Shown: positions 43,421 through 61,200, counted from the stretch's first letter. The stretch: 64,000 nt of DNA from an uncultured bacterium (GCA_902761275.1 CACWJS010000001.1:11477-75476), one strand, 5' to 3'. Notes: generated by a model from the letters alone, not told the origin. A program made the numbers and translations.

Positions 43421-45328
43421 TTACTTCGTGGTATCCTTTCGTAAAACAGAACGCAACCAGTCAATTAACATCACACAAAAGCCTATAAGCGATCCGGCAT
43501 TAACTGTTCCGCTAATCCATTTATTTAAATTCTCGCATTTAAAGTTGGCGTAATACACAATGACAAAAAGTGCCAAAGAGAAGGCAATCTTCAAACAGAG
43601 TTTAACAATCTTTAATATCTTTGACCTTTTCTTCTCGCGCAATCTTTCTTTTTGCTGCAACACGAGCAACTCATTTTGTTGTTTTGTTATTATCTCATCT
43701 TTTTCTTTTATCTCTTCTGTCTTTTCAGCTATAATCTTTTGATTTTCGGCCTGAATTGCCTGAACAAATTTCTCATGTTCTAAACGATACTGTCTATTCG
43801 ACTGTATTTCGACCTCTAGACGACCAATGGTTTCAGCCGAGAAATCAAGAGCTTCTTCGCAATTATCATTCTGTATCTCTTCAGGTAGCAATGGTTTTTC
43901 GCTCAAAGCTAGGATACGTGCACCCAACTGTTCTTGATTGATCTCCCCCTTTTTATACTTGAGCATACTATCTTGGTAAATGTCACTTACTTTTTGTGCG
44001 ACAATCTTCGAAATAACGATTCGCGCTTTTAGCAAAACCTCCGCATTAACAGGAAACTTATCACCACCAAAACCTCCATCAAGTTTGTACCACAACAAGT
44101 TTACAATATGGTTTAATGACATCGCATATCGTGCACAACTATTCGCCGGACGCGTCTTTTTATCATTCGCATATTGAGTATCGGAGGCACCAAGGACATT
44201 CCCAGAGTCACTTACAATTAGATACCTTGAGTCCAATTCAAATCCGGCGACTCGTCCACGACGCAACTTATTTACACGACTAATCGCCTCCCAGCCTTCT
44301 ATATCTCGTTCACTGCAGCAACCGGATGGCATTAAATCGTATTTTTTTAAATCTTCTGAATCATAATCGTATTTCTCGTCTTCGCACACTCCAAGCGACC
44401 TTAACTTGGCAAACAAGTCCGCCATCTTGATTCGCACGTCTGAAGACGTTCGGCTCCCATTTACAATCTGTTTCATCGCCGGTTTCTCCACATAAGCCAG
44501 CGAACGTCCCTCAACAATCATTTCGGCACTTTTGAAAAATCGCTCTATCTCAGATTTCACTTCAGAAAAATATCTCAAAGCAATCTTCCCCTTGCGATTT
44601 CCATCCTTTACCAATTGGTAAAAATCTTCTGCAAGTTCTTTATACACACTGCCATTATACCCGGTCAAGTCAAACAATATCTCTGTGTCCAGATACAATG
44701 TTAGTGAATGTTTCAAGCCTCCCCATTCGCTGATGTTACGATTTATGCCAAGGTAAAGAATCCCGCCTTCGCGAACCGAATCCAAAAAAGCCTGCAATTC
44801 TTTATCATCCTCATTTTCAACAATAAATGCACTAATTGTTTCGCTGTATTCAGTGCTGCCAACACCATCAACAAGATATGACACAATGGCCCTTACCACT
44901 CGTTTTCTATCAGCATCCGGATGCTCTTTGCGGATGCAATCAAATATTTTGTCTGCAATTTCGTCATATTTCGTCTCTTTGTTATTCTTCACTTCAACAA
45001 ATTGACCGTCGTCATTGCATAGCGAATCATCAACTTGGTAAGCATTGTTGACTCTGTTGATAAAACCTAACGTTTTCAAAGCAGTTTTTATGACCGCTTC
45101 AGGTATTTTGAATCCAAAATGGCTTTGCAATCTATCTCTCATCTCGGGAAGTGTGAAAGTATGTAAATGCTCATCATAGACGATGTACCCAATAAAATTT
45201 GACAGCAATTGATAAGGGCTTTTATATTTCCCCGAATCGTTCAATGCTTTCAACAACGCAAAAGACGCAATCGCTGTGATTGGCGCCTTTTCAGATTTAA
45301 TCCCATCCAATGCCATATATTTTTCCAT
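43421..45328 (-). CDS. Orphan AT-rich island protein: large soluble N-domain, C-terminal coiled coil, two TM helices (candidate defence/abortive-infection effector)
   Basis: 635 aa, visibly lower GC than neighbours; coiled coil KEKDEIITKQQNELLVLQQKERLREKK; TM helices ILKIVKLCLKIAFSLALFVIVYY and VNAGSLIGFCVMLIDWL; AAAGGAG SD. Confidence 0.6.
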   Translation of the reverse strand: MEKYMALDGIKSEKAPITAIASFALLKALNDSGKYKSPYQLLSNFIGYIVYDEHLHTFTLPEMRDRLQSHFGFKIPEAVIKTALKTLGFINRVNNAYQVDDSLCNDDGQFVEVKNNKETKYDEIADKIFDCIRKEHPDADRKRVVRAIVSYLVDGVGSTEYSETISAFIVENEDDKELQAFLDSVREGGILYLGINRNISEWGGLKHSLTLYLDTEILFDLTGYNGSVYKELAEDFYQLVKDGNRKGKIALRYFSEVKSEIERFFKSAEMIVEGRSLAYVEKPAMKQIVNGSRTSSDVRIKMADLFAKLRSLGVCEDEKYDYDSEDLKKYDLMPSGCCSERDIEGWEAISRVNKLRRGRVAGFELDSRYLIVSDSGNVLGASDTQYANDKKTRPANSCARYAMSLNHIVNLLWYKLDGGFGGDKFPVNAEVLLKARIVISKIVAQKVSDIYQDSMLKYKKGEINQEQLGARILALSEKPLLPEEIQNDNCEEALDFSAETIGRLEVEIQSNRQYRLEHEKFVQAIQAENQKIIAEKTEEIKEKDEIITKQQNELLVLQQKERLREKKRSKILKIVKLCLKIAFSLALFVIVYYANFKCENLNKWISGTVNAGSLIGFCVMLIDWLRSVLRKDTTK

Positions 45329-45914: not shown

Positions 45915-48653
45915 TCACCGTATCCTTCCCTCCACCACACCCGGCGAACAGAAGTTGTAGTTGAAGTCGAAGCTTGATGAAAAAACAGCGTGATTGTCGG
46001 TTGGCACGTGGTTCGGCCATAGCCGCCTAACCTTGACGTCCGCATAATCCCACATGTTGGTGGAAAGCGTGGTTGCCGCCGTCACCACTCCAGTGCCGGA
46101 AGCGACAGCCGTCCCTGCGTCCCAACTCATAGACGCCGTTTCGTCGTTGAAGGTGCCAATACCCTGTGCGAGCCACTGCGACACACCCCAAACGCCAAGG
46201 AACTCCGTTCCGTATCCAGCGAGAAAATTGCCAAGCTTCGCCATCCGCATGGGCACTCCGTAGAAAGACGCAACAGCCCCCATCCCTCTGATATCATCAA
46301 CCTGATTGTAGAACCACACGGTCGGACGCGAGACGTTGTCGACTCGTCCGAGATAATCGACAGCACCACCGTTCTTAAACCATCTCTTCCCAAAGCTTGG
46401 CGTCTGCCTTTCAAATCTGCCCGTTCGCGCGTTGAGATTCGACATCGCGGCGGCGTAAAGGGCAAAATCGGCCTCGAACACTCCGCTGACCTCCGCGCCC
46501 GAGAGCGGCAGCACGACGGTCGCGTAGGTATTTGACGAACCGGCGGCCTCGGCCTTGAAGCGGTAGACGCCACCCAGCTTCGGGTTTACGAACCGCGCCG
46601 ACAGACTACCCGAGCCCACTAGCGCACCGCTCATTTGCGGCGTTGCCTCCACTATGCTCCACGACGCTGACAGGCCACTCGTTGAGACACCCGCCGGCTC
46701 AAGCTCGAGAGCCATGTCAATATGGAAGTCCGCGATGCTGAATCCGTTTGTGCCAAGTGTCGCCACATTCTCAAACGGAACCACGAGATGCTTGTCGGGC
46801 GACGGGCTGTTTGTCACCGCGAATGGATAGTCCACTCCAGTCAGGAACGGCGGGGGATTCGTGCTCACGCCGGCGACAGCCGAGCTGACGTTCATCTGCT
46901 TGACACGCGCAACCGTCATGGATCGCATGACGGTACGTGCATCATCGCCCTGCAATGCAAGTTCGCATTCAAACACCACATCGCCGACACTCTCGCTTAG
47001 CTCCTCGCCCTCGACAAAGATTGTCGTGCCGCTCTGAATCGCCGCGCTCCATGCCATCGGCAGCGTCACTGAATGCGTCTTGTTGGTGTCCGCCCAAAGC
47101 GCGACCTTCCCAGATCCCGCCGTGCAACGCAGCGTCACGGTGCCTGATGGCTCTCCGCAGGGGCTATAGCCAACCGACAGGACGCCCATGTCGCCGTGAA
47201 GCATAACCACTGGCGAGACAGACATCCCAAGCCACGCCTCGGGATGCTCCTTGTTATATTCCTGGCATTCACAGCCCTGCTCCCACAGGAAACTCTGCGT
47301 GTATCCCTCCCATGTCGCCGCCGCGTCAAGACCGACATGCGAGAACCCGCCACACGAGCAATTCGGGTCGCACGTCCAGGTCAGCGACACGCCGTCAAAC
47401 ACCGCCTGGCAGCATCCGCCGGTGAAGCACGAAATTGACGCACCTACGTATGGCAAAGTATAAAGGACAAGGTTTGGCGCAGTTCCTGTGAAGCCAAGCT
47501 CAACCTGCCTCTGCACATAGAAATCTGAGCCCTGCGCGGCACCGCCCCTCCTAAGAGGCATCGACGTCGTTATCTCCGCAGCTGCGTCGCTCGTCGCCAC
47601 GTCAGACAGCGGACCATTTGCCGCCACGTGGTAGCGTGGCCCCATCAGAAGCGGGACCCGACATACCTGATTTGAGTTCGCGATCACCACCATGTCCCCG
47701 AGATTGCTCTCGCCCTCGCAGTCTATCGTAACGCGCGTGGCGTCGGATAGCGCCGAAAACTCAAGCCAATAGTACGCGGCCGCGCACACATTTGTGTGCC
47801 ATGCCACGACGGGCTCGCCGTTGATGCCGGCACTTGCCGACAGCACCGCGCCGCAGTTTGCGTTCAGCCAATCCGCCCCAGTCCCGAAACAGTCGCCGCC
47901 ATATACGGTCGGCTCAGGGTCTATGGTGTTGTCAAGACCATCGCCATCCCAGTCGTTAGGGTCGATCCTCCTGTAGACATTCGCGGCATCGTTCAACCAC
48001 GTCTCAAAGTCGCCGCCACGACGAAGCACAATCTGCAGGTTCACGCTGTCGTTGGTGTCGGCATTTGGAAAGACGTTCTCCCATCCGACAATCCGCTCGT
48101 CGCCATCTCCTGGAGCCCACCAGATGCGGCTCTCCCCCTGTACTGCGACGACGTTGCTCGCACCAGACGATATCTCGCCCGAAGGGTTGCGCGGGCTCAT
48201 CCTGATTCGGCCGTCGTGGAACCACCAGATCGACGAATACGAAGTGTCGTTCGACCCGAACGGAAACGACCATTCCCCGAAGTCGAGCCGATTGCGGCCA
48301 AAGCCCGACGCCGCTCCGCGCATATGCGCGTTGCCGAGATAGACGGCATTGGTCGGCATAGCGAAGGAATGCCCCGCGTCATTGGTCACATACCCAAGCC
48401 GGTAGCCACGCGCGATCTCCTCCTGCGTCACCATCGCGGGAAGCCCCACAAGCTGACGCATCAGTGCCCTCGTCGTAGAGTTCGTCTTGTCCGCCTCGAC
48501 CGCCGCGATGATGGCAAACGACAAGAAAAGGACCAGCAATTCCCTCGGCAGACTCTTTAGCCGTTCAAATCCACAGACCAGTGGCTTCAGCAAAAGCATG
48601 CCGCAGAAAACCACTGCGGCGCATATCCCGACAACATTCCAGTCGATGCGCAT
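45915..48653 (-). CDS. Giant secreted Cys-rich protein, paralog A (TSP3-like DxDxDG Ca-binding motif)
   Basis: 912 aa; N-terminal hydrophobic anchor; DPNDWDGDGLDNTIDPEP; Cys module CFTGGCCQAV...CDPNCSCGG; shares sequence along most of its length with 50258-52930. Confidence 0.6.
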   Translation of the reverse strand: MRIDWNVVGICAAVVFCGMLLLKPLVCGFERLKSLPRELLVLFLSFAIIAAVEADKTNSTTRALMRQLVGLPAMVTQEEIARGYRLGYVTNDAGHSFAMPTNAVYLGNAHMRGAASGFGRNRLDFGEWSFPFGSNDTSYSSIWWFHDGRIRMSPRNPSGEISSGASNVVAVQGESRIWWAPGDGDERIVGWENVFPNADTNDSVNLQIVLRRGGDFETWLNDAANVYRRIDPNDWDGDGLDNTIDPEPTVYGGDCFGTGADWLNANCGAVLSASAGINGEPVVAWHTNVCAAAYYWLEFSALSDATRVTIDCEGESNLGDMVVIANSNQVCRVPLLMGPRYHVAANGPLSDVATSDAAAEITTSMPLRRGGAAQGSDFYVQRQVELGFTGTAPNLVLYTLPYVGASISCFTGGCCQAVFDGVSLTWTCDPNCSCGGFSHVGLDAAATWEGYTQSFLWEQGCECQEYNKEHPEAWLGMSVSPVVMLHGDMGVLSVGYSPCGEPSGTVTLRCTAGSGKVALWADTNKTHSVTLPMAWSAAIQSGTTIFVEGEELSESVGDVVFECELALQGDDARTVMRSMTVARVKQMNVSSAVAGVSTNPPPFLTGVDYPFAVTNSPSPDKHLVVPFENVATLGTNGFSIADFHIDMALELEPAGVSTSGLSASWSIVEATPQMSGALVGSGSLSARFVNPKLGGVYRFKAEAAGSSNTYATVVLPLSGAEVSGVFEADFALYAAAMSNLNARTGRFERQTPSFGKRWFKNGGAVDYLGRVDNVSRPTVWFYNQVDDIRGMGAVASFYGVPMRMAKLGNFLAGYGTEFLGVWGVSQWLAQGIGTFNDETASMSWDAGTAVASGTGVVTAATTLSTNMWDYADVKVRRLWPNHVPTDNHAVFSSSFDFNYNFCSPGVVEGRIR

Positions 48654-48666
48654 GTTGCCCTCCGCA

Positions 48667-49161
48667 CTATCTGATGGTTATGTCAAACCGCTTGTTTAGA
48701 ACCGTCTCTACAATCGTCTCTCCGACTGTCCCCGCGCCTCGCTTCACGACTTTGGCCATGTTCCATGCTGGGTCGAAGCTGCGCCAACCGACGACAACCG
48801 TTTCGCCGACAGTGTCGTCCACTGTGCCGGAAACGTAGTCCACAAGATACCGCTCCCCGCAATCGCAGCCGAAAACGAATGCCGTCTCTTCAAACGAAAG
48901 ATCGCCGTTCCCGTCGGCATCGCAGCCAATTGCGACAAGCACCTCGTTTGAGACACAGTTCCCCGCGTCCAGAGTCAGACCGAATTCCCGCACTCTCTCG
49001 GCCTTGACGTGCAGCGGGAGATTTGTCGACACCTCTGTATTCGGCATAACGCCGTCAGGAAGCTGCGGCAGCGGATATTCCGCAGCCGCGCAGACCGTCG
49101 GCGCAAGGTGCGCGGCGACGGCAAAAAGCGTCGTCAAAAGAATCTTCTTCATCCCCTGCAC
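48667..49161 (-). CDS. Small secreted Cys-containing protein (hypothetical), driven by repeat-borne promoter
   Basis: Signal peptide MKKILLTTLFAVAAHLAPTVCAAAEY; 164 aa. Confidence 0.55.
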   Translation of the reverse strand: MQGMKKILLTTLFAVAAHLAPTVCAAAEYPLPQLPDGVMPNTEVSTNLPLHVKAERVREFGLTLDAGNCVSNEVLVAIGCDADGNGDLSFEETAFVFGCDCGERYLVDYVSGTVDDTVGETVVVGWRSFDPAWNMAKVVKRGAGTVGETIVETVLNKRFDITIR

Positions 49162-49287
49162 ACTCCTTTCTCCTGAGAAGGCGCCGACAGTATACCATCA
49201 AAGAGGGGATGTCAACTTATCGTAAACTTTTCGTTTGCGGGAAAAACGACGCAGGAGTTATCGTCTGCGATAACTTCATGGCACACG
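49120..49287 (-). promoter_or_regulatory. Promoter/5'-UTR/signal-peptide-start cassette, direct-repeat copy 1
   Basis: Minus strand: TTGACA ...(15) TATACT, ~36-nt leader with AAGGAG, ATG; ~85% identical to 55379-55541. Confidence 0.65.
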
Positions 49288-49431
49288 GCGAGGCAAGGCG
49301 CCTCTTAAATTAGGAGATATGCGGAGCGCGGCAAATCCACCGCGCAAGTCTGAAGCAACTTGCAAGCTGGTTCTTTCATAATGGTTTGACGGCGGCTGTC
49401 CCTCCCACCTCATTGCACCCTGTCCCAATCA

Positions 49432-50256
49432 TCATTTGAATTCATCCAGCCACTTGGGGATGTAGCCGGTGGTGTTTTCAAGATACTGAGCAAGAGTCCG
49501 CACGCCGCGAATGACGTTCTCCCGCGTTGAATAGCCGCGTTCGTAAAGGAGCATCTGCCCCTTCAAGTCTGCATTCATGTACCGCCGCGTCAACCCATTC
49601 TCGGACTCAATCTGATTAATTATCATTTCCTCGAGCTCCTTGGCGACCAATGCGAAATCCTCGCGTCCCTCGTCTGTAAACTTCCGGATGCATTTCCTTA
49701 TCATGGCCAACGCATCTGCCTCAAAATATGCCCCTTGCCTCGGAACCAATACTGCGGAGCGCTCAATATCGCCCAAGAGATTCATTCCCTCAATGCAATC
49801 GATAACGCATGCCTTAAACTCTTCCGGTGTTGCATACGAGCGCGACAAAATCCCGCCCTTAAACTCGCGGCTAATGGCGCCAGCGCAAGGTCTTACTATG
49901 TCGTAATAGTGTCCGGCGGATATACCCTTCATCCTCTCCGAAACGGTCGCGACGCAATCCTTCATGCCCCGAACATTCCCATTCAGAAGGTTTGTCGCGG
50001 CAGCCGTCCATACTGATTCCAATTGCGCACGTTCTGCATCGCTCACCCATTCAGGATGATAACGCAAGAGATCGCCGGGTGGGCAATCTTCGTCGATGCT
50101 GTTGTTTATCCATTCTTTCAACGGCGCTGCCGCATCTGGTGTCGATGTCTCATTAGAAGCCGACTTAACATGCTTCGGCATGAGAATACGACGAACGATG
50201 AATATGCCGCATGCAGCAACGATCAGCAATGTCAGTGTCAATAATGTCTTTTTCAT
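49432..50256 (-). CDS. Membrane-anchored/lipoprotein-like hypothetical protein
   Basis: MKKTLLTLTLLIVAACGIFIV N-terminal anchor; 274 aa; immediately downstream of paralog B. Confidence 0.5.
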   Translation of the reverse strand: MKKTLLTLTLLIVAACGIFIVRRILMPKHVKSASNETSTPDAAAPLKEWINNSIDEDCPPGDLLRYHPEWVSDAERAQLESVWTAAATNLLNGNVRGMKDCVATVSERMKGISAGHYYDIVRPCAGAISREFKGGILSRSYATPEEFKACVIDCIEGMNLLGDIERSAVLVPRQGAYFEADALAMIRKCIRKFTDEGREDFALVAKELEEMIINQIESENGLTRRYMNADLKGQMLLYERGYSTRENVIRGVRTLAQYLENTTGYIPKWLDEFK

Positions 50257-50257
50257 G

Positions 50258-52930
50258 TCAATGCACCCATTGAATGGTTTTGCCGTCTACTATAATCCGG
50301 CAGAATCGACCGCGCGACATGGTATGCCCGTGTTTCTCGATCGATGCCGTTCCATCGTCGGAAATGGAAAAAATTTGCTGATATGCGTCTTGTTTCCCGC
50401 CTATCAACAAGATTCGTGATAAATTGTCATTGTCAGCATTGATCTCATGCTCTGCCTCACGAACCCCGTGCCTGTCGTCGCCGTCAAACCGCATTCTGAC
50501 CCACCCTATGGGGATGTCCCAAACGAGACGTCCAGCGGACCAATTCTCATATTCCAAGGGATGTCCGGCTCTATCAACTGTCCAATAGTTATTTGTCGCT
50601 ATTCGAGTCGCCATGCCCCAACCGTAGTCAAATATACGCCAGTGCGTCCATTGCCCAGTGTAGTTTGTCGTTGCAAAATAACCAGATGGCATATTGGTGT
50701 GAGTGCATGGGATCTCGGACACCATGATTCCGTGGAACGACACGTTCATCGGGCCGACATAGTTCGTAATCGCAAGCAAAGTTCCCCCGACTGATCCCGG
50801 AGAACGACAAGGCGCATAGTATGAATCCCAGAAAGCATTTGGGCTTATTATTTCCTTCGGCTCGACAATTGTCATCTCAGGCCTATACTCAGCCTCGCGG
50901 CACACGACTTTCAGATTTGGCGTCACCGAGTAGATTGGGCACGCATATATTTTCCCCGCAGAATCTATGATATTGTCATAATGATACAGCTCGTTTGTAT
51001 CAATGCGCGTCAGCTGAACACTTGTCGCCACACTTTCGGGGAAACTGCGAAACTGAACCCGTTCCCCTACGCCATAGACATGGCGGTTGGTGCATGGGTT
51101 TTCGGGTGCTTCCCAGACCGCGGCGAGTTCCACGCGAACAGACGTGGCATGGCAGTCGTTTGTAATCGACTCTCCAGTGACATTGTCGGTCAGCGTAGCG
51201 ATAACCTCGATGTCGTCAGCCGTATCGCTCGCCGACAGCCCCACGTAGTTCATTGCATACGTTATCGACTGCCTTGCCGGAACAGACACCGACTGCGAGG
51301 GGAAGGCAGGACCCGAGTTCTTCTGTAACTTGCCAAGGTTCGTCGCGGACACGGACAGCACGGCGCCATTAGTTCCGCCGTTGGCACTGATAGTCAGCAT
51401 CGTCGCCGTCGAGCGCCGCGAAACCCACTCGCCAGGCGAGTTTTCGTATCCATCCTCGAATATGACCGCATCCTTGCTGAAATTGGCAGAGACAGATGCC
51501 GCATACGGAGCGGCCGATGGTGTCGGCGTTGGGTCTGGCGCATCTTCCCAGCATCCACACGAGGCATAACCAATGAACAACTTGGAATACCCTTCCCACA
51601 GCGCAGTCGTTTCAAAACTATGATACACTCCTCCGCAAGTACACGTCAAGGAACACGACCACTGCAATATACCGTCAACAACCTCCCGCGAGCAACACCC
51701 TCCGAGACAGGCGATAATCGAGGGGCGTACATTAATCGGCGAAGATGCCGCGCCATAGTTGCCTGTAGACCCTGCGCTTCTCGTCTGTATTCGCACCAGG
51801 GAAAGTTCCAAAGGCAAAGAAACGGTCAGGCGATTCTCGGCGTTCGTCACGATCTCCGCGTATTCGCTCGACACGGCAGAGTAGTCAATCGGCAAGTCGC
51901 TTTCGACTGTGTATGTCGCGCCAGCGAGAAGCGGGACGTGGCAGACTTGGTTTGTCCGCGCAATGATCACATGGTCGCCAAGGTCGCTCGCTCCATCGCA
52001 AGTGACGCGGATCGTCGCAACTCCGAGAACCCCTGTCACCGAAAGATCAAGCAAGTAGTAGGCATCGGGGTTCGCGTTTGGCGGCAAGGCATTTGCCACG
52101 CCAAAGAAATCTCCGTCGCAGCTTGTAGGATTCGCATCTCGCTCGTTATGGATTCCGTCATCATCCCAATCGTCGGGGTTGACGCGGCGGCAGACTGTCT
52201 CGACCTCGTTCGAACGCGTTACGAAGTCGCCGTTGGGAGAAAGGACGATCTGCGCATTTACGGGGCTGTTCGTGTCGCCGTCGAGGAAGAAGTTTTCCCA
52301 TGTTAGAACGCGGCTGCCATCATCGCCATCAAGCTGCCAGAACTGGCTTTGGCCTGGAACAGCAAACATCGGGACGCCGACAGCGCAGATTTCGTGCGCA
52401 GCATCTCGCGGAGTTGGGCGAATGCGACCATCGATGAAATACCAAAACGATGAAAACGCCTCGTCGTTCGTGCCGAGCGGGAATGCCCAATCGCCAAAAT
52501 CAATCCTGTTGTTTCCAAACGACGATGTCGCGCCGTGGATGTGCCAGTTCCCGACAAGCGCTGCGTTCGTCGGCATCGCATACGAAACCGCCGCGTTAGT
52601 CGTGACGCTCTCCACTCGCCAACCGCGAGAAATGTCATCAATAGTCGCCTGGACAGGATTCACAAGGTTTATAAGATTACCAATCCCTAACAATCCTGTC
52701 AATCCTGTCTGAAAAGAAGGCCCCTGCATCATCTGCGGCTGATTCATATTCGGCGGCACATTGTTCGTCTTCTGCGCATCGAGCGACGTGCCGACGGCGA
52801 GAAGCGAAAGCGCGAGGAGTAGCGAAGCCGACAGTCTGCGAAGTGCACGAACATTGATACGAACAAGGAACGCGAATATGCAGACGCACTCGGCAACGAC
52901 AAAGCAACTCCCAAGGAAATGCCAGTTCAT
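50258..52930 (-). CDS. Giant secreted Cys-rich protein, paralog B
   Basis: 890 aa; NPDDWDDDGIHNERDANP; Cys module CLGGCCSREV...CSLTCTCGG; collinear with paralog A. Confidence 0.6.
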   Translation of the reverse strand: MNWHFLGSCFVVAECVCIFAFLVRINVRALRRLSASLLLALSLLAVGTSLDAQKTNNVPPNMNQPQMMQGPSFQTGLTGLLGIGNLINLVNPVQATIDDISRGWRVESVTTNAAVSYAMPTNAALVGNWHIHGATSSFGNNRIDFGDWAFPLGTNDEAFSSFWYFIDGRIRPTPRDAAHEICAVGVPMFAVPGQSQFWQLDGDDGSRVLTWENFFLDGDTNSPVNAQIVLSPNGDFVTRSNEVETVCRRVNPDDWDDDGIHNERDANPTSCDGDFFGVANALPPNANPDAYYLLDLSVTGVLGVATIRVTCDGASDLGDHVIIARTNQVCHVPLLAGATYTVESDLPIDYSAVSSEYAEIVTNAENRLTVSLPLELSLVRIQTRSAGSTGNYGAASSPINVRPSIIACLGGCCSREVVDGILQWSCSLTCTCGGVYHSFETTALWEGYSKLFIGYASCGCWEDAPDPTPTPSAAPYAASVSANFSKDAVIFEDGYENSPGEWVSRRSTATMLTISANGGTNGAVLSVSATNLGKLQKNSGPAFPSQSVSVPARQSITYAMNYVGLSASDTADDIEVIATLTDNVTGESITNDCHATSVRVELAAVWEAPENPCTNRHVYGVGERVQFRSFPESVATSVQLTRIDTNELYHYDNIIDSAGKIYACPIYSVTPNLKVVCREAEYRPEMTIVEPKEIISPNAFWDSYYAPCRSPGSVGGTLLAITNYVGPMNVSFHGIMVSEIPCTHTNMPSGYFATTNYTGQWTHWRIFDYGWGMATRIATNNYWTVDRAGHPLEYENWSAGRLVWDIPIGWVRMRFDGDDRHGVREAEHEINADNDNLSRILLIGGKQDAYQQIFSISDDGTASIEKHGHTMSRGRFCRIIVDGKTIQWVH

Positions 52931-53028
52931 CGCCGTGCTACCTTACAAACCCCGCATCCGCTGACACAACAAATGAGACAGACATCGAACACAAAACATT
53001 AATCCGACCCAAAAGAGCCGCCTTTCTC

Positions 53029-55257
53029 TCATAAAGCAACATGCCACCCACTAATGTCATCATAGAGTTCTTGCAATGATCTTATTGACATGTCCACCAA
53101 CGGTTCGTACATAAATGAATTCAAATGTATTTGCTCAGGCGTCATTAAAGAAACCTTATTCAAAATAGTGCGTTCTGCTTCCGTGCCAAGATTCTGCGAG
53201 CGAAACGACTTAAACAACTTCCCAAATCGACTCCGGCCACTTACACGAGGCTGGCCCCTCTCTATTAGCATTGCTTCCATAAAGGACTCTGCCATTAAGC
53301 GTATAGTCATTGCAAGAACTACCTTGTTCTCAAGTTTGATTTCGTCAAGCTGCCCTTGTCCCAGCTCTTCTGATATTCGCCTAGCCTCGGCGAACAATAT
53401 GTCAACCCACGGCATATCCATATTCGGCCAAAACAGGTCTATATTCGAAATCCGCGGCAATGTTTTGAGATAAACATTTTTGACTTCACTTGCAAGCACT
53501 GACCTTGTAATCCGCAGCATGGGGTCTTCATGCTTGATGTCATGCAAGCATGATGTTAGAAGCAAATAATCTGAGGAACTATCGCCTTGGATATACTCTA
53601 TTAGATTACGGACAAATGGCAGCATAGCCAACAATATTCTATTAGTGGGGTTCGCAATCCAAGTTTGGAGAAGATTTCTTAAGAAGTGCCCTCCCGACAG
53701 TTTTATCTCCCTGGTTAATGGATCCTTTGTAGCCATAAATACATTCTGCGCTCTTTTCAAGCCTAGCCGGGAACATACTGTCCTGTAAAAATCTAGATTG
53801 TGAGTTAATATAATCGTACGAACCATGGAGTTCATACTTAAGTCCTGAATATATTCAATAATGGCATATTTGTTTTTATAGTCAAATGAATCAGCCACAT
53901 CATCAAAGATTAAAAGCAATGGACTCGTTTTGCGCACTTCAATTTCAAACAGAATCTGCAACAAACAAAACGCCCTACGCTCCCCCTTGCTTAACACGTC
54001 GCCCAATAAAGCGTCCGAAGTGCGCTCGACAGGGACTGCATTATTAGAATCATCGCAGTAATAAAACTTCAGCTTGGCATCTTCATGATTAACAAGAACA
54101 TTCTGCTGATTCTCAATCTCAACTTTAAATGGAGCATGAAATCTGTCATTAAATAAATCAATGATGTGTCTCCATATGGCCTGCTCTTGTCCCGCGCGAT
54201 TTAGAATATTCCGGAGCGTAGACTTTCTTTGTCTGTACAAATCAATCAATTGTCGATATGATTCTGCGACCCTTCGCAAATAAGAATACCAAACCTTCTT
54301 GCGAAAAGCATCATAATCCAAAAGATCAACAAGGTACTCGTTGTGTGCGAATATTGCCGCCTTAAAAGCCCTTAATTCCTTATTTTTCCCAATAGCGCCA
54401 TCAATCTTATCAAAGACTCTCCTAACAGCGGGCTCGTTGACCACTCGCGCTAATTCTCCATCGTATTTACTCTTGAACTCTTCGTATGTATTTAGATTAA
54501 CGCCACTATCTAATGTAATTTTATGTCCAACCTTGAAAAAAGAATTATCCTTTAAACTCTTCGAAATTGCATCTGCCTGCTCCGTACCAAATACAACATT
54601 GCCGACGACCTTAAAGAAATCCGACTGAGTCAAAACATTATTGTACTCCCTAAAATACTCCTCTATGCTCTGCCGATGTTTTTGAAGGAACTCACGGACT
54701 TTACCGCCTCTATCAAAAATATCGTTATACTTAAAAGAGTATTCGGGGGGAGCAACGTCGTCAATTCCATCAAATATGCGCTCTAAAATCTCTAAATCTG
54801 TCTCTTGACTATTAACAGCAAATGCCTCTCTCAATTCAACACTACAGTCAGAACTTTGCGAAACAGTTTTTAACTCGCCAAAAAATCGATCTAGCGCAGC
54901 ACTCAATTCTTGATATACAGCATCATATTCACGCTTCAATTCTTCGCTGGCAAGAAATGCGGAAACACTCTTTTCAGCAGAAACAAAATTCTCCGGGTCA
55001 ACAACATATACACTTTCAGGGGCAAGAGCCGCACCATTCCCTTCACGAAAAATTGCCACGCTTTCCCTATCCGGATAAACCAAATCGCCAGGAGCAAGCC
55101 CACGAGCATATGCCTGGAACGTCTTGGTTAATGATGTTTTCATTGTCCCGTTAGGCGCATAGACAACAGAATATGGGCAATCCGACGTAAACTCAAACTC
55201 ATGTTCAAGTTTGCCAATCCCATAACAGTTTTCTATTTGCATTTTTATTTTCGACAT
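53029..55257 (-). CDS. AT-rich island ATPase: split ABC/SMC-type (AAA_15/AAA_21-like) N-domain with degenerate Walker A plus ~260-aa unassigned C-terminal domain (candidate single-gene defence system)
   Basis: N-term KMQIENCYGIGKLEHEFEF...VVYAPNGTMKTSL (Walker A with Gly to Met); Walker B-like LLLIFDDVADSFD; H-loop-like TIILTHNLDF; long helical insert between; low-GC codon usage. Confidence 0.6.
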   Translation of the reverse strand: MSKIKMQIENCYGIGKLEHEFEFTSDCPYSVVYAPNGTMKTSLTKTFQAYARGLAPGDLVYPDRESVAIFREGNGAALAPESVYVVDPENFVSAEKSVSAFLASEELKREYDAVYQELSAALDRFFGELKTVSQSSDCSVELREAFAVNSQETDLEILERIFDGIDDVAPPEYSFKYNDIFDRGGKVREFLQKHRQSIEEYFREYNNVLTQSDFFKVVGNVVFGTEQADAISKSLKDNSFFKVGHKITLDSGVNLNTYEEFKSKYDGELARVVNEPAVRRVFDKIDGAIGKNKELRAFKAAIFAHNEYLVDLLDYDAFRKKVWYSYLRRVAESYRQLIDLYRQRKSTLRNILNRAGQEQAIWRHIIDLFNDRFHAPFKVEIENQQNVLVNHEDAKLKFYYCDDSNNAVPVERTSDALLGDVLSKGERRAFCLLQILFEIEVRKTSPLLLIFDDVADSFDYKNKYAIIEYIQDLSMNSMVRTIILTHNLDFYRTVCSRLGLKRAQNVFMATKDPLTREIKLSGGHFLRNLLQTWIANPTNRILLAMLPFVRNLIEYIQGDSSSDYLLLTSCLHDIKHEDPMLRITRSVLASEVKNVYLKTLPRISNIDLFWPNMDMPWVDILFAEARRISEELGQGQLDEIKLENKVVLAMTIRLMAESFMEAMLIERGQPRVSGRSRFGKLFKSFRSQNLGTEAERTILNKVSLMTPEQIHLNSFMYEPLVDMSIRSLQELYDDISGWHVAL

Positions 55258-55293
55258 TACTTGATTCCTTTCCCTGTTGATAACTTCTTTCCA

Positions 55294-55410
55294 TTATGGA
55301 ACACATTGCCATTGTTGAAGCCCAACGCCTCGCGACAATTCAAGGAGACATTCGCAATTATTATATTTTGTTGTCGTCGGCAAAAGCGTCGTCAAAAGCA
55401 TCTTATTCAT
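55294..55410 (-). pseudogene. Remnant 38-codon ORF carrying the first ~9 codons of the 48667-49161 paralog (MNKMLLTTL...)
   Basis: Sits in direct-repeat copy 2; homology to MKKILLTTLFAVAA stops after ~9 aa; followed by the AT-rich ATPase gene. Confidence 0.35.
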
Positions 55411-55541
55411 CCCCTGCACACTCCTTTCCTGAGAAGTCGCTGACAGTATACCATCAACGAGGGGATGTCAACTTATCGTTAGCTTTTCTGTTACGAGAAA
55501 AACGACTCAGAAGTTATCGAATAAGATAACTCCGTGGCATA
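55379..55541 (-). promoter_or_regulatory. Promoter/5'-UTR cassette, direct-repeat copy 2
   Basis: Same TTGACA/TATACT promoter and leader as copy 1; now upstream of remnant ORF plus ATPase gene. Confidence 0.65.
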
Positions 55542-55572
55542 TAACGGCGGCGATAACTTGCCAAGTCACCAA

Positions 55573-56685
55573 CTACCAAAGATGCAGCATTGTTATGAGG
55601 ATAAGAACACCGAGGAGTGCAAAGACGAGGCCAATCGCGATCTTCGCGGGGATCACGTTGCGCGACGACCATTTCGCCATCTGGAATGCGTCGGTCGTCT
55701 TCGAGGCGAGGACGAACACGGCGACAAGCGGAAAGACGAACGCAAGATTGTAGAGCGCGAGCAGAGCGAAGGAACGCCATGCCCCAGGCTCGCGAGATAT
55801 GAGTGCGAGGACAGGCACGTAGACCTGCCCCGTGCAGAGTGCGTCGAGCAGCGTCACGAGGAAGGCGCAACCGAATCCTGCGAGGACAACCGCCGGGCCG
55901 CTCCAGCTCTCCATCGCAATCTTACGTATCAGCACCTTCACCCCCTCCGGCAGCTTCAGAGTCACGACGGAGAAGACGGGTATTTTGCGGAAGCGCAGCG
56001 CATCGCGGAAACTCAGGAACGACAGTACGAAAAGCGAGAGCGCAAGAAGGGCCATCACTACGTCGTGGACTACGCGGAGCCCTTCTAACACCTTCAAGGC
56101 CTGCATGAGCCCAAGGCCCATCAGCATGTATGTGACGAACGTTCCGGCGCAGAAAGAAAGTCCGCCGAGGATTCGCGCCTTGCGCTTGCGCCCGCCGATG
56201 GCGAGGATTCCGGCAAGGGAAATCATGATCGCAAAGGAACAGGGGTTGAATCCGTCGACGATTCCCGCGAGGACGACGGTCGGAAGTGTCCAGCGCGACG
56301 CAGCGGCGGCGGTCTTCGACTCGACGGCCATTCCAGTAACGGGAATGTTTATCACGGGGCTTTCTGGGTCGTCGCAAAGAATCTGGACGTGCTTGGAGAA
56401 CTCGCCTGGGAGCATGGCCTTGAGCGCAACCGAGAGTGTCGCAGAAGACGACGGTGCGATGCACATAGCCGACAGCACGGCGTCAGTGCCGCAGCAGCCC
56501 TTAACCTGCGAGACGGCGACGGGCGAGGACGAGGCGTTGCGTATCTCGACCGACTTCGTCGCCGCCTCCCCCGCGGCTATCTCGCCGAACGCCACGCCCT
56601 CCGGCGGAACGGCAAGGCGAGGCGCGGAGAGGGCGGAGAGAATCGGGAGACAACATAGACAACAGAAAACAACTATTCTTCTCAT
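55573..56685 (-). CDS. DUF1573 (ASPM-like beta-sandwich) fused to CcdA/DsbD-family thiol:disulfide transmembrane domain
   Basis: Signal peptide; KSVEIRNASSSPVAVSQVKGCCGTDAVL (DUF1573-like); TM domain with GFNPCSF and LDALCTGQ Cys pair typical of CcdA/DsbD. Confidence 0.7.
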   Translation of the reverse strand: MRRIVVFCCLCCLPILSALSAPRLAVPPEGVAFGEIAAGEAATKSVEIRNASSSPVAVSQVKGCCGTDAVLSAMCIAPSSSATLSVALKAMLPGEFSKHVQILCDDPESPVINIPVTGMAVESKTAAAASRWTLPTVVLAGIVDGFNPCSFAIMISLAGILAIGGRKRKARILGGLSFCAGTFVTYMLMGLGLMQALKVLEGLRVVHDVVMALLALSLFVLSFLSFRDALRFRKIPVFSVVTLKLPEGVKVLIRKIAMESWSGPAVVLAGFGCAFLVTLLDALCTGQVYVPVLALISREPGAWRSFALLALYNLAFVFPLVAVFVLASKTTDAFQMAKWSSRNVIPAKIAIGLVFALLGVLILITMLHLW

Positions 56686-57815: not shown

Positions 57816-58244
57816 TCAATCTGTAGTCCATATTCCTCTTGCATTTTCATAGTGAAGGTCATATCCTTTGAATGGGAAGGATCTTGGTCTATGCTCTTTC
57901 ATTATTCCAGAGTAAGAAGTTTTTCTTGAAAACCGATACTCGTCAAAAGAAATCCATGCTTCTGATAACACAACCCCAAGAAATATTACCAGCAGGATCT
58001 TGGATGCGGCGAAATCGAAAATACCAGCGCATGACGATTGCTTTACCGCAATGCGGACAAAGCACAACAGGACAGACACTGTAAACACAACGCCAGTTGC
58101 AAGCACGACGCCGACCAATGCGCCTCGCATGCTAAAGCCAATAATCTCCGTCATGCATCTCCCTTCTCCATACATTTTGAATGTCACCAATAAAATGACA
58201 ATCTGCAACATACTTCTTAATAGATTTCCGCAATTATCTGACAT
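57816..58244 (-). CDS. Putative immunity protein for the RHS C-terminal toxin (small membrane protein)
   Basis: Start MSDNCGN at 58244 overlaps RHS stop (58234-58236) by 11 nt; 2-3 TM helices; AT-rich like the RHS tail. Confidence 0.45.
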   Translation of the reverse strand: MSDNCGNLLRSMLQIVILLVTFKMYGEGRCMTEIIGFSMRGALVGVVLATGVVFTVSVLLCFVRIAVKQSSCAGIFDFAASKILLVIFLGVVLSEAWISFDEYRFSRKTSYSGIMKEHRPRSFPFKGYDLHYENARGIWTTD

Positions 58245-61200
58245 ATGGAGGCTCCTCTCCACCTCGTGGTTCCTTAGGGGGGCCACCAAATTCGCCAGGA
58301 GGGACTATATATGGAGGTTGTTTCCCTATTCCTGATGCTATGTGATTAACACATGTTTCCATTGAATAATAGTTAACCGCACACTTTATTTTCACACAAG
58401 TACTTCCATCAACTTTGTATGTGGTGCCGCCAATGACAAAGCCATCAACAAGAAGCCATTTCCCTGCCAGTCCTCCGTATGCCGGGTTGCTGTATTCGTC
58501 AATTATCCAAATCCGCAACAATCCTTTGCAACTGTTATCAATGAAGAGTTTTCCTCTACCAAATTTGAAGCAACATTGGCATAAAGCTAGTCCCAAAAGG
58601 TCGAAATTACCTATAGGATTATTACCAGCAAATGCAATTTTCTGGACTACTTTTTCCCCCGAGGCTGAATCTCCACTGAGCAATTGGTCAAATATTGGAT
58701 CTAAAGACAGCCAACGCCCAGTAGCCATATGGAAATGCCGAAAATTGAAGTATAATAAACCCAAAGGGCAATCACTATATTCAGAACTGAAACGCCAAGG
58801 ATTACAATCGCCATCAATCATCCTAATGCACGTTCCAAATGGAGCATAATCGTAATGATACATATTTTTTGACGCCACCTCAGACACATTCTTATTCCCA
58901 TCATGAAAATAATACGATGCGCTTGCATTGTTCCGCCACACAAGCGGACGTGTCGCGACTGGTTCCGTCGGGTCCCACACATAGACATTTCCGTTGTTGT
59001 CGGCAATCTGAAGATAGCCCGCACAGGTGAAGAACTGTGAGTTTTTAACCACCCTGCGCCCCATACGATCGTATGACATGACGATGTTCGTGTCACCATT
59101 CGACCACTGAACGGGGCGGTTCTCGCCGTTATATATGACAGACCAGATGCCATTATCTGCTTTGATTAGGGTTTGATTGCCGTCATCGTCGTATTGTGGA
59201 CCGAAAACAGCATTTTCATTTGCAACAACACTGGTATTCGATATTAGCGTATACTGGTTCAGACAGTTGGCAACATATTCTGTGCGATTCGTGGCTTCCA
59301 ACGACCACAAACGATTGCCTATACAATCATATTTGTAGACATATTGATAATTCCTATCTACTGACACGACGGCGTTAGTCAATTCACCTCGGATGTTGTA
59401 GCCATACGAAATGACCTCTTCCTGTTCAAATGAGGAACCTGAGTGCGAGCATGAAACACACCTTCTCGTCGCACCGTAAGTATAATCGTACCGTGAAATC
59501 ACATTCGTTGGCGTGGTGTTGCAAACTTGAAGCAGCTGGTTGTTGGCATCGTATTGCCATGACGCGGTCATGCCATTGGGGTATGCGAGCAGGGATTTCA
59601 AATCTGAACCGGGAAGATACGACCACACAAATGGGGTCTCAGAACCGGCGGCAAGCATAGACGCAATACGCCCTGTTGCGTGATCATAACCTATCACAGT
59701 CTGCCATTCACCATTGAACGCATAGCCAGCATCGCGGCCGAAGTTATCCCAATGGCGAATGATTGTATTGGTTCCGGCCACGCCAATGACGGTTTCGTTG
59801 GTGAGAGAACCGAAAGAGTCGTAGAGGAAGGTGGTTGTGCCTGCGGCGTCGTGAGCTTCGGTCTGGCGGCCAATGGCATCGTATACGAGAGAAACCGTGG
59901 GTGTATTGTCAGAGTAGACTGTGTTAGTGAGGCTGCCCCATTCGTCATAGGAGTAGTCTGTGACGATGCCGCGAGCCCAGATGCGCTGAGAGAGTTTGCC
60001 GTCGGGAATGTAGGTGTAGGATGGACCCTTGCCGTCGGCGTATACCTTGTTCGTCATCGCGCCGGAGGCGATGTCGTAGAGCCAGGTGGTGACATCACCT
60101 GAATTGGGGCCGAGCGATTCGTTTCGGTACGTCATCATGGTCGCCTTATTACCGAAGATGTCGTAAGTGTAGCGCACGGGATAAGTCGCACCGCCTTCGT
60201 ATGTCTTACGGCCGCGAAGGTCGTATTCGTAGACCGTAGCGTTGCCAAGAGGATCGGTGACGGAGGCAAGATTTCCAAACTGGTCGTAGGCATAGGATGT
60301 ACGATTACCAAGCGCATCAATGGAAGCAGAGCGCTGGCCGAGGGCGTTGTACTCGGTGTGGCGTGTGTTGCCACGTCCGTCGGTATTTGCAATCTGGCGA
60401 CCGAGGGAGTCGTATGCGACTGTGTTGGTTACGGCAGAAACAGACACATCCATCAGCGAGACGCCGTAGCGAGAAATCGAAAGCGGCTTGTTGGTCGCGT
60501 AGGGAAGCGTCTGACGCGAAGCGACAAAAGGCGAAGAAACCAACATTTCGTTTTCTGTCATGTTGCCGCGAATATCGGTGGAGCGGGAACGCGCGGGAGT
60601 GGCGGCGGATAGGCCGGTAAGCTGTTGCGCAGAAGAGGTGACGAGTGGCGCGATGGCTGAGTCGGAGCAGGAGACGATGTTGGTTTGGGTGAGCCAAACG
60701 AAGGAGTCGGAGAAAACGAAAGAAGAACGCGTTTCGGTTTTGCGCCATTCAGACGGGCAAGCAGGGGCGCTTGCCCCTACCAAGCGCGTCGTCGCGATAC
60801 GGTTGCCGAGCGTGTCGTAGGTGTACTCGGTAGTCGGCTCGTAGTCGGCAGAGGTGGAGACGAGGCGACCGTAAGAGTCGTAGGCGTGAGTGGTGGCGAG
60901 AACAGCACCTCGGAAGCCGGAGCGTTCTTCACAAAGGGTCTGGCCAAGCATGTTCTCGTAGCGCTTGGTGAAGCGAGGCGAAGAAGCAGTTTCGCCCTGC
61001 ACGATGCGATACCAGCGAGTTCCGTCTGACAACATACCGGAGGTGTGGAACTCGGGAGTGATGGCGGTGCCGGTGATAGAGAGATTGTCTCCGGACGCGG
61101 AGCGAGAATAAACGACCGTCGAAGTGTTGGGGTGTTGGACGAACACGGTTCGCCCGTCTGGACTGTAGGTCGTCGTTGTTGTGTTGCTGAGAGTGTCGAT

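Follow-up and report, generated by a model that had tools for sequence, protein, structure and literature searches.

We found that a regulatory module of about 165 bp occurs twice, in the same orientation, in a 64-kb stretch of DNA (the window) from the genome of an uncultured rumen/gut member of the Kiritimatiellae, where the two copies bracket a 6-kb strain-variable block. To judge by its sequence and its recurrence in relatives, this module is the control region of an operon that is conserved in Kiritimatiellae and encodes a small secreted protein and a giant protein. The most coherent account, which we consider probable, is that the second copy is a regulated module of the A type grafted onto a different giant-protein cassette, that an ATPase gene was inserted behind it at a later time, and that the two repeats recombine; promoter activity, start site and read-through are predictions in this account. 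The features of the locus are as follows.

45915-48653, minus strand: giant protein A, 912 aa, starting 13 nt past the small gene
48667-49152, minus strand: small secreted protein, 161 aa, with signal peptide and beta-sandwich model
49116-49287, minus strand: repeat copy 1, which covers the regulatory region, the 5'UTR and the ~10 initial codons of the small-giant A operon
49432-50256, minus strand: putative lipoprotein, 274 aa, last gene of the B cassette
50258-52930, minus strand: giant protein B, 890 aa, paralogue of A and, in relatives, the first full-length gene behind copy 2
52946-55308, minus strand: AT-rich insertion of 2,363 bp relative to empty-site relatives, between junction sequences caacaatgg and taaggtag
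53029-55257, minus strand: ABC/SMC-type ATPase, 742 aa, candidate single-gene phage-defence protein (PADLOC PDC-S46, Pfam AAA_13)
55294-55410, minus strand: vestigial 38-codon ORF MNKMLLTTLLPTTTKYNN... (the stump), homologous to the small gene over 10 codons and ending in an unrelated tail
55375-55544, minus strand: repeat copy 2, same module as copy 1, directly after the 370-aa DUF1573 gene
55573-56685, minus strand: DUF1573/membrane protein, 370 aa, upstream anchor of copy 2

A preliminary description of this DNA had reported two repeats of ~165 bp with ~85% identity in the same orientation, and a BLASTN self-comparison confirmed them, 49283..49116 matching copy 2 at 86.3% identity over 168 columns. 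The copies differ by one 2-bp indel, which offsets the two segment pairs returned by a repeat search (49171-49283/55427-55539, 85%; 49124-49170/55382-55428, 96%). In the alignment, homology extends from ~49287/55544 down to 49120/55379, with none outside these limits. The 36-nt core GATAAGTTGACATCCCCTCNTTGATGGTATACTGTC is present at exactly two places in the window and in none of 100 shuffles. An independent assembly, L005, matches 56700-49000 at 99.99%, so the repeat structure did not arise from faulty assembly of the window. A search of 185,579 species genomes yielded three contigs matching the repeat, with one copy each. The hallmarks of a transposable element or MITE (TIR, TSD, dispersed copies) were looked for and neither TIR nor TSD was present at the locus; the only two operator copies within the window both precede paralogous operons.

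ORF calls agree with the gene content originally given for the 6-kb segment between the copies, namely the lipoprotein gene, giant B and an AT-rich ATPase gene (GC ~0.40). The giants are paralogous, as had been proposed, with 40% identity over ~400 N-terminal residues (E=7e-81) and complete divergence beyond. Copy 1 was said to open a 164-aa secreted protein; this ORF, MKKILLTTLFAVAA..., is real and has a signal peptide, while its length is 161 aa from the ATG and 164 aa from an upstream GTG. The ORF behind copy 2 ends after 38 codons, at 55294-55410, as first read.

The promoter elements identified in the two copies are listed below.

49254-49277, minus strand: copy 1 inverted-repeat operator GAAGTTATCG-CAGA-CGATAACTCC, a geometry that recurs with co-varying half-sites in other lineages
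49212-49233, minus strand: copy 1 tandem 11-bp direct repeats CGAAAAGTTTA CGATAAGTTGA, the second holding the start of the '-35' TTGACA
49189-49197, minus strand: copy 1 extended -10 TGgTATACT; TATAMT after TG is conserved in all lineages
55510-55533, minus strand: copy 2 inverted-repeat operator GGAGTTATCT-TATT-CGATAACTTC
55468-55489, minus strand: copy 2 direct repeats AGAAAAGCTAA CGATAAGTTGA, the first slightly degenerate
55445-55453, minus strand: copy 2 extended -10 TGgTATACT

The arrangement described for each copy on the minus strand, TTGACA-N15-TATACT followed by a leader with AAGGAG and an ATG, was recovered in both. In copy 1, TTGACA (49215-49210) is followed by the 15-nt spacer, TATACT (49194-49189), a 36-nt leader with AAAGGAG and the ATG at 49152; in copy 2, TTGACA lies at 55471-55466 and TATACT at 55450-55445, and a 34-nt stretch, likewise carrying AAAGGAG, leads to the ATG at 55410. 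Compared with sigma-70 hexamers, both copies match at 6/6 (TTGACA) and 5/6 (TATACT) positions and have TG at -15/-14. The usual sigma-70 promoter spacer is 16-18 nt, whereas both copies and all related lineages have 15 nt, which is why a standard promoter scan omits the site. The earlier reading of a strong near-consensus promoter is not supported in that form: TTGACA closes an 11-bp direct repeat and is conserved at 15 nt from the -10.

As a whole, the module comprises an inverted repeat (10-4-10), a T-rich gap of 20 nt and two 11-bp direct repeats that carry the same half-site and abut TTG; after 17 nt come the extended -10 TGnTATACT and a short leader with AAAGGAG. This operator geometry is identical in 59 instances, which fall into four half-site classes (CGATAAC/G, CGTATAC, TGACAAC/G and CGATAAT/G), and all four half-sites within an operator co-vary between lineages, a clean signal of use for regulon prediction in this uncultured clade. 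Equivalent direct-repeat pairs, CGTATACTTCA/CGTATACTTGC and TGACAAGTTCG/TGACAAGTTGC, lie at the same distance to the -10 in other lineages. As in OmpR/PhoB operators, the tandem repeats have a periodicity of ~11 bp and adjoin the -35. Divergent genes for a response regulator (Response_reg + Trans_reg_C) and a histidine kinase lie within ~130-270 bp of the small gene at ~27 related loci. The fixed layout together with these adjacent genes makes the promoter of both copies look activator-dependent, and the most likely mode would be activation by an OmpR/PhoB-type response regulator, encoded beside the operon in most relatives and outside this window. Kinase and regulator, operator, small beta-sandwich protein and giant polymorphic protein define a conserved, uncharacterised Kiritimatiellae module.

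The pho box consists of two tandem 11-bp direct repeats beside or over the -35 of a promoter with a good -10. The module described here likewise has two tandem 11-bp repeats at the -35 and a good -10, and in relatives, as in PhoB/OmpR systems, genes for an OmpR-family regulator and a kinase adjoin the target operon. It differs from the pho box in adding an upstream 10-4-10 palindrome of the same, putatively bound half-site and in keeping TTG(ACA) at a fixed 15 nt from the -10, and from PhoB/OmpR systems in that the 64-kb window has neither a response regulator nor a kinase gene. For an OmpR-family site, the upstream palindrome is unusual.

A simple tandem duplication of the small-giant unit, as initially suggested, does not hold as stated, since divergence along the supposed unit is uneven: the promoter repeats share ~86% of their DNA, whereas the giants share 40% of their protein sequence, in the N-terminal half only. 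Native B-type units elsewhere, whose giants are 60-88% identical, carry a small-B gene of their own (in intact units, 45-49% identical to small A) and another promoter type; therefore, copy 2 appears to be an A-type module grafted onto giant B. We propose that small-giant A has copy 1 as its native promoter, and that copy 2, joined past codon 10 to an unrelated tail, now heads the cassette of giant B and the 274-aa protein. The overall layout would be that of an insertion-duplication, with a block between direct repeats of the target promoter and 5' end. It resembles Campbell-type structures in that direct repeats of the target itself enclose the block, and differs from them in that the repeats are only ~86% identical and 165 bp long and that there is no sign of a vector, plasmid or recombinase.

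The comparison sequences, all of them metagenome contigs, include states with a single promoter. In both L037 and L013 this promoter is anchored by the 370-aa DUF1573 gene, and in L037 the order is 370-aa gene, promoter, intact small gene and A-type giant. L013 follows copy 2 base for base up to GAAAGGAGTGTGCAGGGGATGAA, continues as copy 1 and lacks the 6.26-kb block. Because it is thus an exact copy 2/copy 1 hybrid, the product predicted for direct-repeat-mediated deletion, recombination between the repeats seems to take place in natural populations, and both copies would still be substrates for homologous recombination able to delete the whole block. The junctions of L013, L031 and L037 could in principle be mis-assemblies; against this, the longest exact run common to both copies is only ~23 nt. 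The start variants MNKM and MKKI are found at both positions in different strains.

The ATPase gene has a separate history. Its description as foreign is well founded: it is the only gene of a strain-variable insertion, co-oriented and situated between the stump and giant B, with a GC content of 0.40 against ~0.58 in the flanks. No target-site duplication or terminal repeats were seen at the indel junctions. Three independent relatives with an empty site, L015, L024 (MAG RUI187) and L026 (RUG14463), retain copy 2 and, at this position, not an intact small gene but the same stump (MNKMLLTTLLPTTTKYNNCECLLELSRGVGLQQW and a stop; 34 codons), directly before the giant B start codon. The claim that the ATPase replaced the small gene thus fails the test that the preliminary description had proposed for it: the ATPase belongs to a distinct 2,363-bp indel downstream of the stump, and the small gene was most likely already a stump before the ATPase arrived. 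The candidate defence gene would have destroyed no gene on arrival, but come to lie between a stump that was already there and the gene that follows. With respect to polarity, the indel would be explained either by a gain in the present strain and those nearly identical to it or by one loss ancestral to the empty-site strains; the preferred reading places an insertion of the PDC-S46 cassette here. The stump tail has no significant similarity to small genes and could be the scar of an older insertion. It is partly AT-rich.

The ATPase matches the PDC-S46 profile over its full length (E=1.6e-219; residues 1-736 against 1-716 of 719) and Pfam AAA_13 with 41 bits (cut-off 36). PDC-S46/AAA_13 ABC-type ATPases have AbiLi, RloC/PrrC-like proteins and PDC-S06 as relatives. 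Full-length homologues are found on plasmids of many phyla and in restriction-modification/defence islands, a close one in a restriction-modification context. Homologues at 70-73% identity have a WYL_2 partner, unlike the ATPase described here. We found no mention of PDC-S46 in the literature searched, and the family is a candidate for defence only; the protein is accordingly regarded as a candidate phage-defence protein, the defence context of its homologues being circumstantial.

Capture of the resident copy-2 promoter by the ATPase is plausible because the gene is co-oriented ~150 nt downstream of the copy-2 -10 and a promoter scan between copy 2 and the ATPase showed no promoter-like site of its own. 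As the insertion lies between the stump and giant B, copy 2 most likely drives transcription of the ATPase, and giant B would be reached by read-through; the interval from the ATPase to giant B contains no convincing terminator or structure. The ATPase would now be under a promoter that looks signal-regulated, not constitutive. If two-component control is true, an acquired candidate defence gene sits under an envelope- or environment-sensing circuit, which is a testable prediction.

A promoterless foreign defence candidate co-oriented just past a resident promoter recalls defence islands as well as promoter capture of the kind seen at the integron Pc, and, as at defence hotspots, neighbouring positions in sister strains hold other variable, defence-like cargo. 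In a rather unlikely extension of this likeness, the two-component-controlled promoter and 5' end of the small-giant operon would be a dedicated, reusable landing pad and expression platform in rumen/gut Kiritimatiellae, integron-like without a linked integrase, where promoterless cassettes (giant + lipoprotein modules, defence genes) enter via Campbell-type single crossover of circles or a trans-acting recombinase. Each entry would duplicate the promoter, and therefore every cassette would get a copy. If true, foreign promoterless defence genes and polymorphic giant modules would all be wired to one signal-responsive regulator, in a functionally integron-like array able to shed cassettes through repeat recombination. 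Consistent with this idea, cargo is bracketed by direct repeats of the promoter and 5' small gene in three independent lineages (the window, L015 and L109-L111), L015 carries three promoter copies, occupied and unoccupied states occur in two upstream contexts (window versus L037/L013, L024 versus L031), and the cargo at these sites is repeatedly AT-rich and defence-like. However, the locus has no integrase, attI or attC, no recombinase occurs among the genes at 40-64 kb, and the cargo flanks have no inverted repeats. Truncations at codon 10, at codon 85 and by internal deletion show no conserved crossover point, the ATPase lies in a separate non-homologous indel not flanked by repeats, its homologues at 70% and 55% identity reside in ordinary defence islands without small or giant genes, and ordinary RecA recombination in a variable region would yield the same pattern.

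It is improbable that, after tandem duplication of the small-giant unit, the ATPase overwrote the second small gene and took its promoter, the ATPase-free relatives being secondary deletions that retain the insert's first ~75 nt. AT-rich sequence does begin immediately where homology breaks, past codon 10; L015 has another promoter copy with a small gene truncated at codon 85, followed by 1.6 kb of cargo at 37-39% GC, and in L109 a 73%-identical ATPase lies behind a truncated duplicate of the local small gene. However, the identical stump-giant B junction is present without the ATPase in the three relatives, which come from different studies, while the ATPase-bearing state is confined to contigs 99.7-100% identical to the window. 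The DNA homology to the L109 ATPase ends exactly at the ORF ends, which leaves the stump tail outside any shared cassette; moreover, the A and B units, at 40% amino-acid identity, are far too diverged for plain duplication to leave 86% promoter identity.

Still less probable is a functional leader peptide or uORF controlling translation or attenuation of the downstream gene: the stump ORF and its strong Shine-Dalgarno are kept in four lineages, and in ATPase-free relatives it stops 14 nt before the giant B ATG, so that translational coupling would be possible, but an 8-bp deletion removes its ATG in L024, leader structure does not exceed shuffled controls (z = 0.05 and -0.17), Rfam gave no matches at E<=1, the ORF is missing from all other lineages of the operon, and its 10 opening codons are no more than the beginning of the small gene's signal peptide.

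Beyond the insertion, the comparison documents a strain-variable array of giant cassettes that resembles Rhs/CdiA-type polymorphic-effector loci: the giants share their N-terminal residues before diverging, behind each lies a different gene for a small secreted protein or lipoprotein, the cassettes vary by strain, and Rhs genes adjoin the locus. In contrast to Rhs/CdiA-type arrays, the cassettes here are all full-length genes, each with an N-terminus of its own; domains for toxin, immunity or secretion functions were looked for at the locus and none was detected, and we treat the likeness as a resemblance only. The 3' end of the 274-aa lipoprotein gene is also duplicated in L015.

The repeat search, MAFFT and BLASTN show that the window carries two copies of a same-orientation repeat, and the identity of about 85% given in the preliminary description was borne out at about 86% over 168 columns. 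Blocks 49171-49283 and 55427-55539 share 85% identity and blocks 49124-49170 and 55382-55428 share 96%, with a 2-bp indel offset between them, and similarity is absent beyond the limits of the two copies. In the window a 36-nt core is present at exactly two places, and none of 100 shuffles contains it. Both copies contain the minus-strand elements that had been described, namely TTGACA, 15 nt, TATACT, then AAAGGAG and an ATG, and TG precedes the -10 element. The secreted protein gene at copy 1 and the 38-codon ORF at copy 2 were likewise found, the latter sharing only its first 10 codons with the small protein.

Repeat copies and the ORFs that they open
about 49116-49287, minus strand: repeat copy 1, with the promoter and the start of the 161-aa small gene
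48667-49152, minus strand: small secreted protein of 161 aa, opened by copy 1
about 55375-55544, minus strand: repeat copy 2, with the promoter and the start of the 38-codon ORF
55294-55410, minus strand: stump ORF of 38 codons, opened by copy 2

Between the copies lie, as described before, genes for a 742-aa ATPase (GC about 0.40), giant protein B (890 aa) and a 274-aa protein. An independent assembly, L005, reproduces the entire arrangement at 99.99% identity. A search of the species-genome collection matched the repeat to three contigs, with one copy each. On account of these one-copy matches, of the presence of only two copies in the window and of the absence of TIR and TSD, a mobile-element reading of the repeat was rejected. 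The preliminary observation is thereby confirmed, and its interpretation finds partial support. The feature is best described as a duplicated promoter/5' module that is probably under two-component regulation. One copy of it stands on either side of a variable cassette, and copy 2 now also precedes a candidate defence ATPase that appears to have been inserted recently. Three known kinds of element are thus represented: an activator-type operator, a direct-repeat-flanked variable cassette, and a defence-gene insertion under a resident promoter.

It had been proposed that the second small gene was replaced by the incoming ATPase. This order of events is not supported, because three ATPase-free relatives from different projects, L015 (scaffold WOLF17), L024 (MAG RUI187) and L026 (RUG14463), keep copy 2 together with the same stump; retention of the truncated ORF where the ATPase is missing is the very result that the preliminary description had given as a refutation. 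In all three, the truncated ORF MNKMLLTTLLPTTTKYNNCECLLELSRGVGLQQW* stands behind copy 2, and its sequence continues directly with the giant B ATG leader, ...tggTAAggtag; the L026 contig stops 9 nt into this leader. Alignment of the window to L015 delimits the ATPase insertion to 52946-55308, a segment of 2,363 bp in which the ORF has 51 nt of flanking sequence on its 5' side and 83 nt on its 3' side. Its junctions show neither target-site duplication nor terminal repeats, and no tRNA or tmRNA that could have been an integration target lies within 40-64 kb. The ATPase-bearing state was found only in contigs 99.7-100% identical to the window.

The stump itself is regarded as a probable vestige and not as a leader peptide, since L024 has lost its ATG by an 8-bp deletion and the fold energies of a possible attenuator or leader structure are not above those of shuffled controls. 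Local alignment of its tail, the approximately 94 nt past codon 10, with the 3' part of small-A and small-B genes was not significant against 300 shuffles (best z = 2.2, p = 0.05; others about 0).

The preliminary description also held that the whole unit of small gene and giant gene had been duplicated. The two units do not fit a plain tandem duplication, since the promoters are 86% identical as DNA whereas giants A and B are 40% identical as protein. Elsewhere, giants 60-88% identical to B stand behind a small-B gene of their own, which has 45-49% identity to small A, and behind a promoter of another type; this argues that copy 2 is an A-type module grafted onto a B cassette. The homology of giant B to these B-type units begins only about 150 nt inside the ORF. 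L037, whose small protein is 81% identical, has a single promoter after the 370-aa gene (the DUF1573/membrane protein gene that anchors copy 2 upstream), then a small gene that is intact and starts with MNKM..., and then an A-type giant; L031 and L024 present the same alternative of intact gene versus stump, but with a different upstream gene. Formally, the layout of the window is that of an insertion-duplication: on both sides of a block consisting of the tail, (the ATPase), giant B, the 274-aa gene and the intergenic region, the promoter and first 10 codons of the target stand as direct repeats.

The two copies also appear to have recombined with each other. Contig L013 (ERZ919318 scaffold_34330) encodes a small protein identical to that of the window, and L013:1-300 corresponds base for base to the end of the window's 370-aa gene and to copy 2 up to GAAAGGAGTGTGCAGGGGATGAA; beyond that point its sequence is that of copy 1 and the small gene. 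The crossover falls inside a 23-nt stretch identical in both copies, and L013 has the structure expected of the exact product of a homologous recombination deleting 6.26 kb. Although L013, L037, L031 and the other comparison sequences are all metagenome contigs, mis-assembly at junctions of this type is unlikely, because the longest exact run common to both copies is only about 23 nt. Start variants MNKM and MKKI occur at either position, varying by strain. Orthologous copies cluster by position, with 95-99% identity inside each type as against 73-87% from one type to the other, so the duplication is older than the divergence of these strains.

The ATPase gives a full-length match to PADLOC PDC-S46 (E=1.6e-219) and a match to Pfam AAA_13 above the cut-off. 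It has more than 2,000 homologs, and full-length copies are found on plasmids of many phyla. One homolog of 70% identity is surrounded by Mrr, WYL_2, a type III-like methyltransferase, a helicase and HEPN, and one of 55% lies in another defence-type neighbourhood. On the basis of these matches, plasmid copies and neighbourhoods, it is a horizontally mobile candidate defence gene. We found no mention of PDC-S46 in the literature searched. The Walker A motif (residues about 33-42, window 55150-55130 region) reads APNGTMKTS, with Met in place of the second conserved Gly of GxxxxGK[ST], and a 73% identical homolog, P0122, has Met at the same position; the ABC signature LSKGE and the Walker B motif LLLIFDD are present. 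A promoter scan from copy 2 to the ATPase start codon gave no promoter-like site, and the gap between the ATPase and giant B shows no convincing terminator, its only hairpin being weak and lacking a T-run (z = -0.22); for these two reasons, both genes are probably expressed from copy 2.

To characterize the promoter module, upstream regions of 170 nt were compared for about 80 small genes from metagenomes. A fixed layout was recovered, consisting of a 10-4-10 inverted repeat, 20 nt, two 11-bp direct repeats, 17 nt and a TG-preceded TATAMT. A geometric scan for this layout gave 59 instances in four half-site classes: CGATAAC/G, to which the window's lineage belongs, CGTATAC, TGACAAC/G and CGATAAT/G. 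The half-site varies between classes and is identical at all four positions inside one class, a coordinated change of the kind that co-evolution between an operator and its regulator leaves behind. About 27 related loci carry divergent genes for an OmpR-family response regulator (Response_reg and Trans_reg_C) and a histidine kinase, which begin roughly 130-270 bp from the small gene. The second direct repeat ends with the apparent "-35" TTGACA, whose distance to the -10 element is invariably 15 nt. From this we infer a promoter of the extended -10 type that depends on an activator, as opposed to a strong constitutive promoter. The window contains two operator copies only; tblastn of the 64 kb with two response regulators and one kinase gave no match, and an Rfam search of 48500-56000 returned no family at E<=1.

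Linkage of regulator and kinase to the small-giant operon spans Kiritimatiellae lineages (for example L020:8194-10001, L049, L075 and L082), and other repeat motifs occupy the regulator/small-gene intergenic region in L051, the L056 group, the L069 group and L083. Whereas the window has a leader of 34-36 nt, only about 8-13 nt separate the -10 element from the annotated ATG in L075, L079, L082 and the B-type loci L087-L108, which suggests that the mRNAs there are leaderless or the starts mis-called.

Homologs of the small protein were found only in uncultured Kiritimatiellae from gut and rumen metagenomes, and in every lineage examined a giant of about 850-1,085 aa directly follows the small gene. 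The 40% identity of giants A and B extends over about 400 N-terminal residues, with no similarity beyond. Neither small nor giant proteins match any entry in Pfam, NCBIfam or PADLOC, and a PDB sequence search gave no meaningful match. The AlphaFold model of the small protein is a beta-sandwich (pLDDT 78.5) with generic jelly-roll/beta-sandwich matches only (TM <= 0.41, E >= 5e-3) and no specific structural relative. Small genes are disrupted in several strains (P0038, P0092, P0117; L027, L028): P0117 is frameshifted, P0092 is internally deleted, and in P0038 the gene is fused to the last 50 or so residues of giant A, most of which is deleted.

Gene content at this locus differs among relatives. 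L015 has three promoter copies, its third unit (L015:9700-15560) lying between the 274-aa gene and the small gene. Behind the middle promoter copy come a small gene truncated at codon 85 (P0098, 119 aa), 1.6 kb of cargo with 37-39% GC encoding 203, 83 and 169 aa without family matches, a third giant, C (851 aa, 47% identical to B), a chimeric 245-aa lipoprotein and a duplicate of the 274-aa gene's 204-bp 3' end. L029 has another giant/lipoprotein cassette upstream of its promoter-small-giant A unit. At L109:6770-14391, and also in L110 and L111, all of a distant lineage, an ATPase 73% identical to that of the window lies between a truncated duplicate of promoter and small gene and an intact unit of promoter, small gene (187 aa), 856-aa and 214-aa genes. 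Its companions are a WYL_2 gene, a PDC-S05-like fragment and a type III methyltransferase stump, and this cargo has 36-43% GC versus 63-68% in the host. DNA homology between L109 and the window ends at the ends of the ATPase ORF. Taken together, the comparisons show the locus to be a recombination-prone cassette array and a defence-gene hotspot. That the promoter segment is a dedicated landing platform has low probability, since the locus lacks a recombinase, breakpoints differ from case to case and the ATPase indel is itself non-homologous.

A functional link between the ATPase and the small-giant unit, suggested by L109, was rejected because the 70% and 55% homologs lie in unrelated defence islands. 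In close relatives (L029:1-3100 and L035:335-1200), small-B-type sequences occur as a 29-codon fragment in L029 and near full-length in L035, and the array content differs per strain.

A second AT-rich gene (43421-45328, minus strand; 635 aa, GC 0.36-0.44) stands at the 3' end of the small-giant A unit and has no family match in Pfam, PADLOC or NCBIfam. Its position is taken in the sister strains L007/L008 by genes of 162 aa, 375 aa (SDH_protease) and 64 aa, and in L015/L019, likewise sister strains, by caspase-like Peptidase_C14 genes. It looks like a second variable hotspot. The gene for a 1,688-aa RHS-repeat protein (58234-63300, minus strand) has an AT-rich 3' end, with GC of 0.42-0.46 over about 58000-59500 versus 0.54-0.71 elsewhere in the gene, and a membrane-like 157-aa ORF (57816-58289, minus strand) overlaps its end. 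Together (57816-63300) they have the usual look of a swapped toxin tip with its immunity gene. In L021-L023, too, the small-giant operon has RHS genes next to it.
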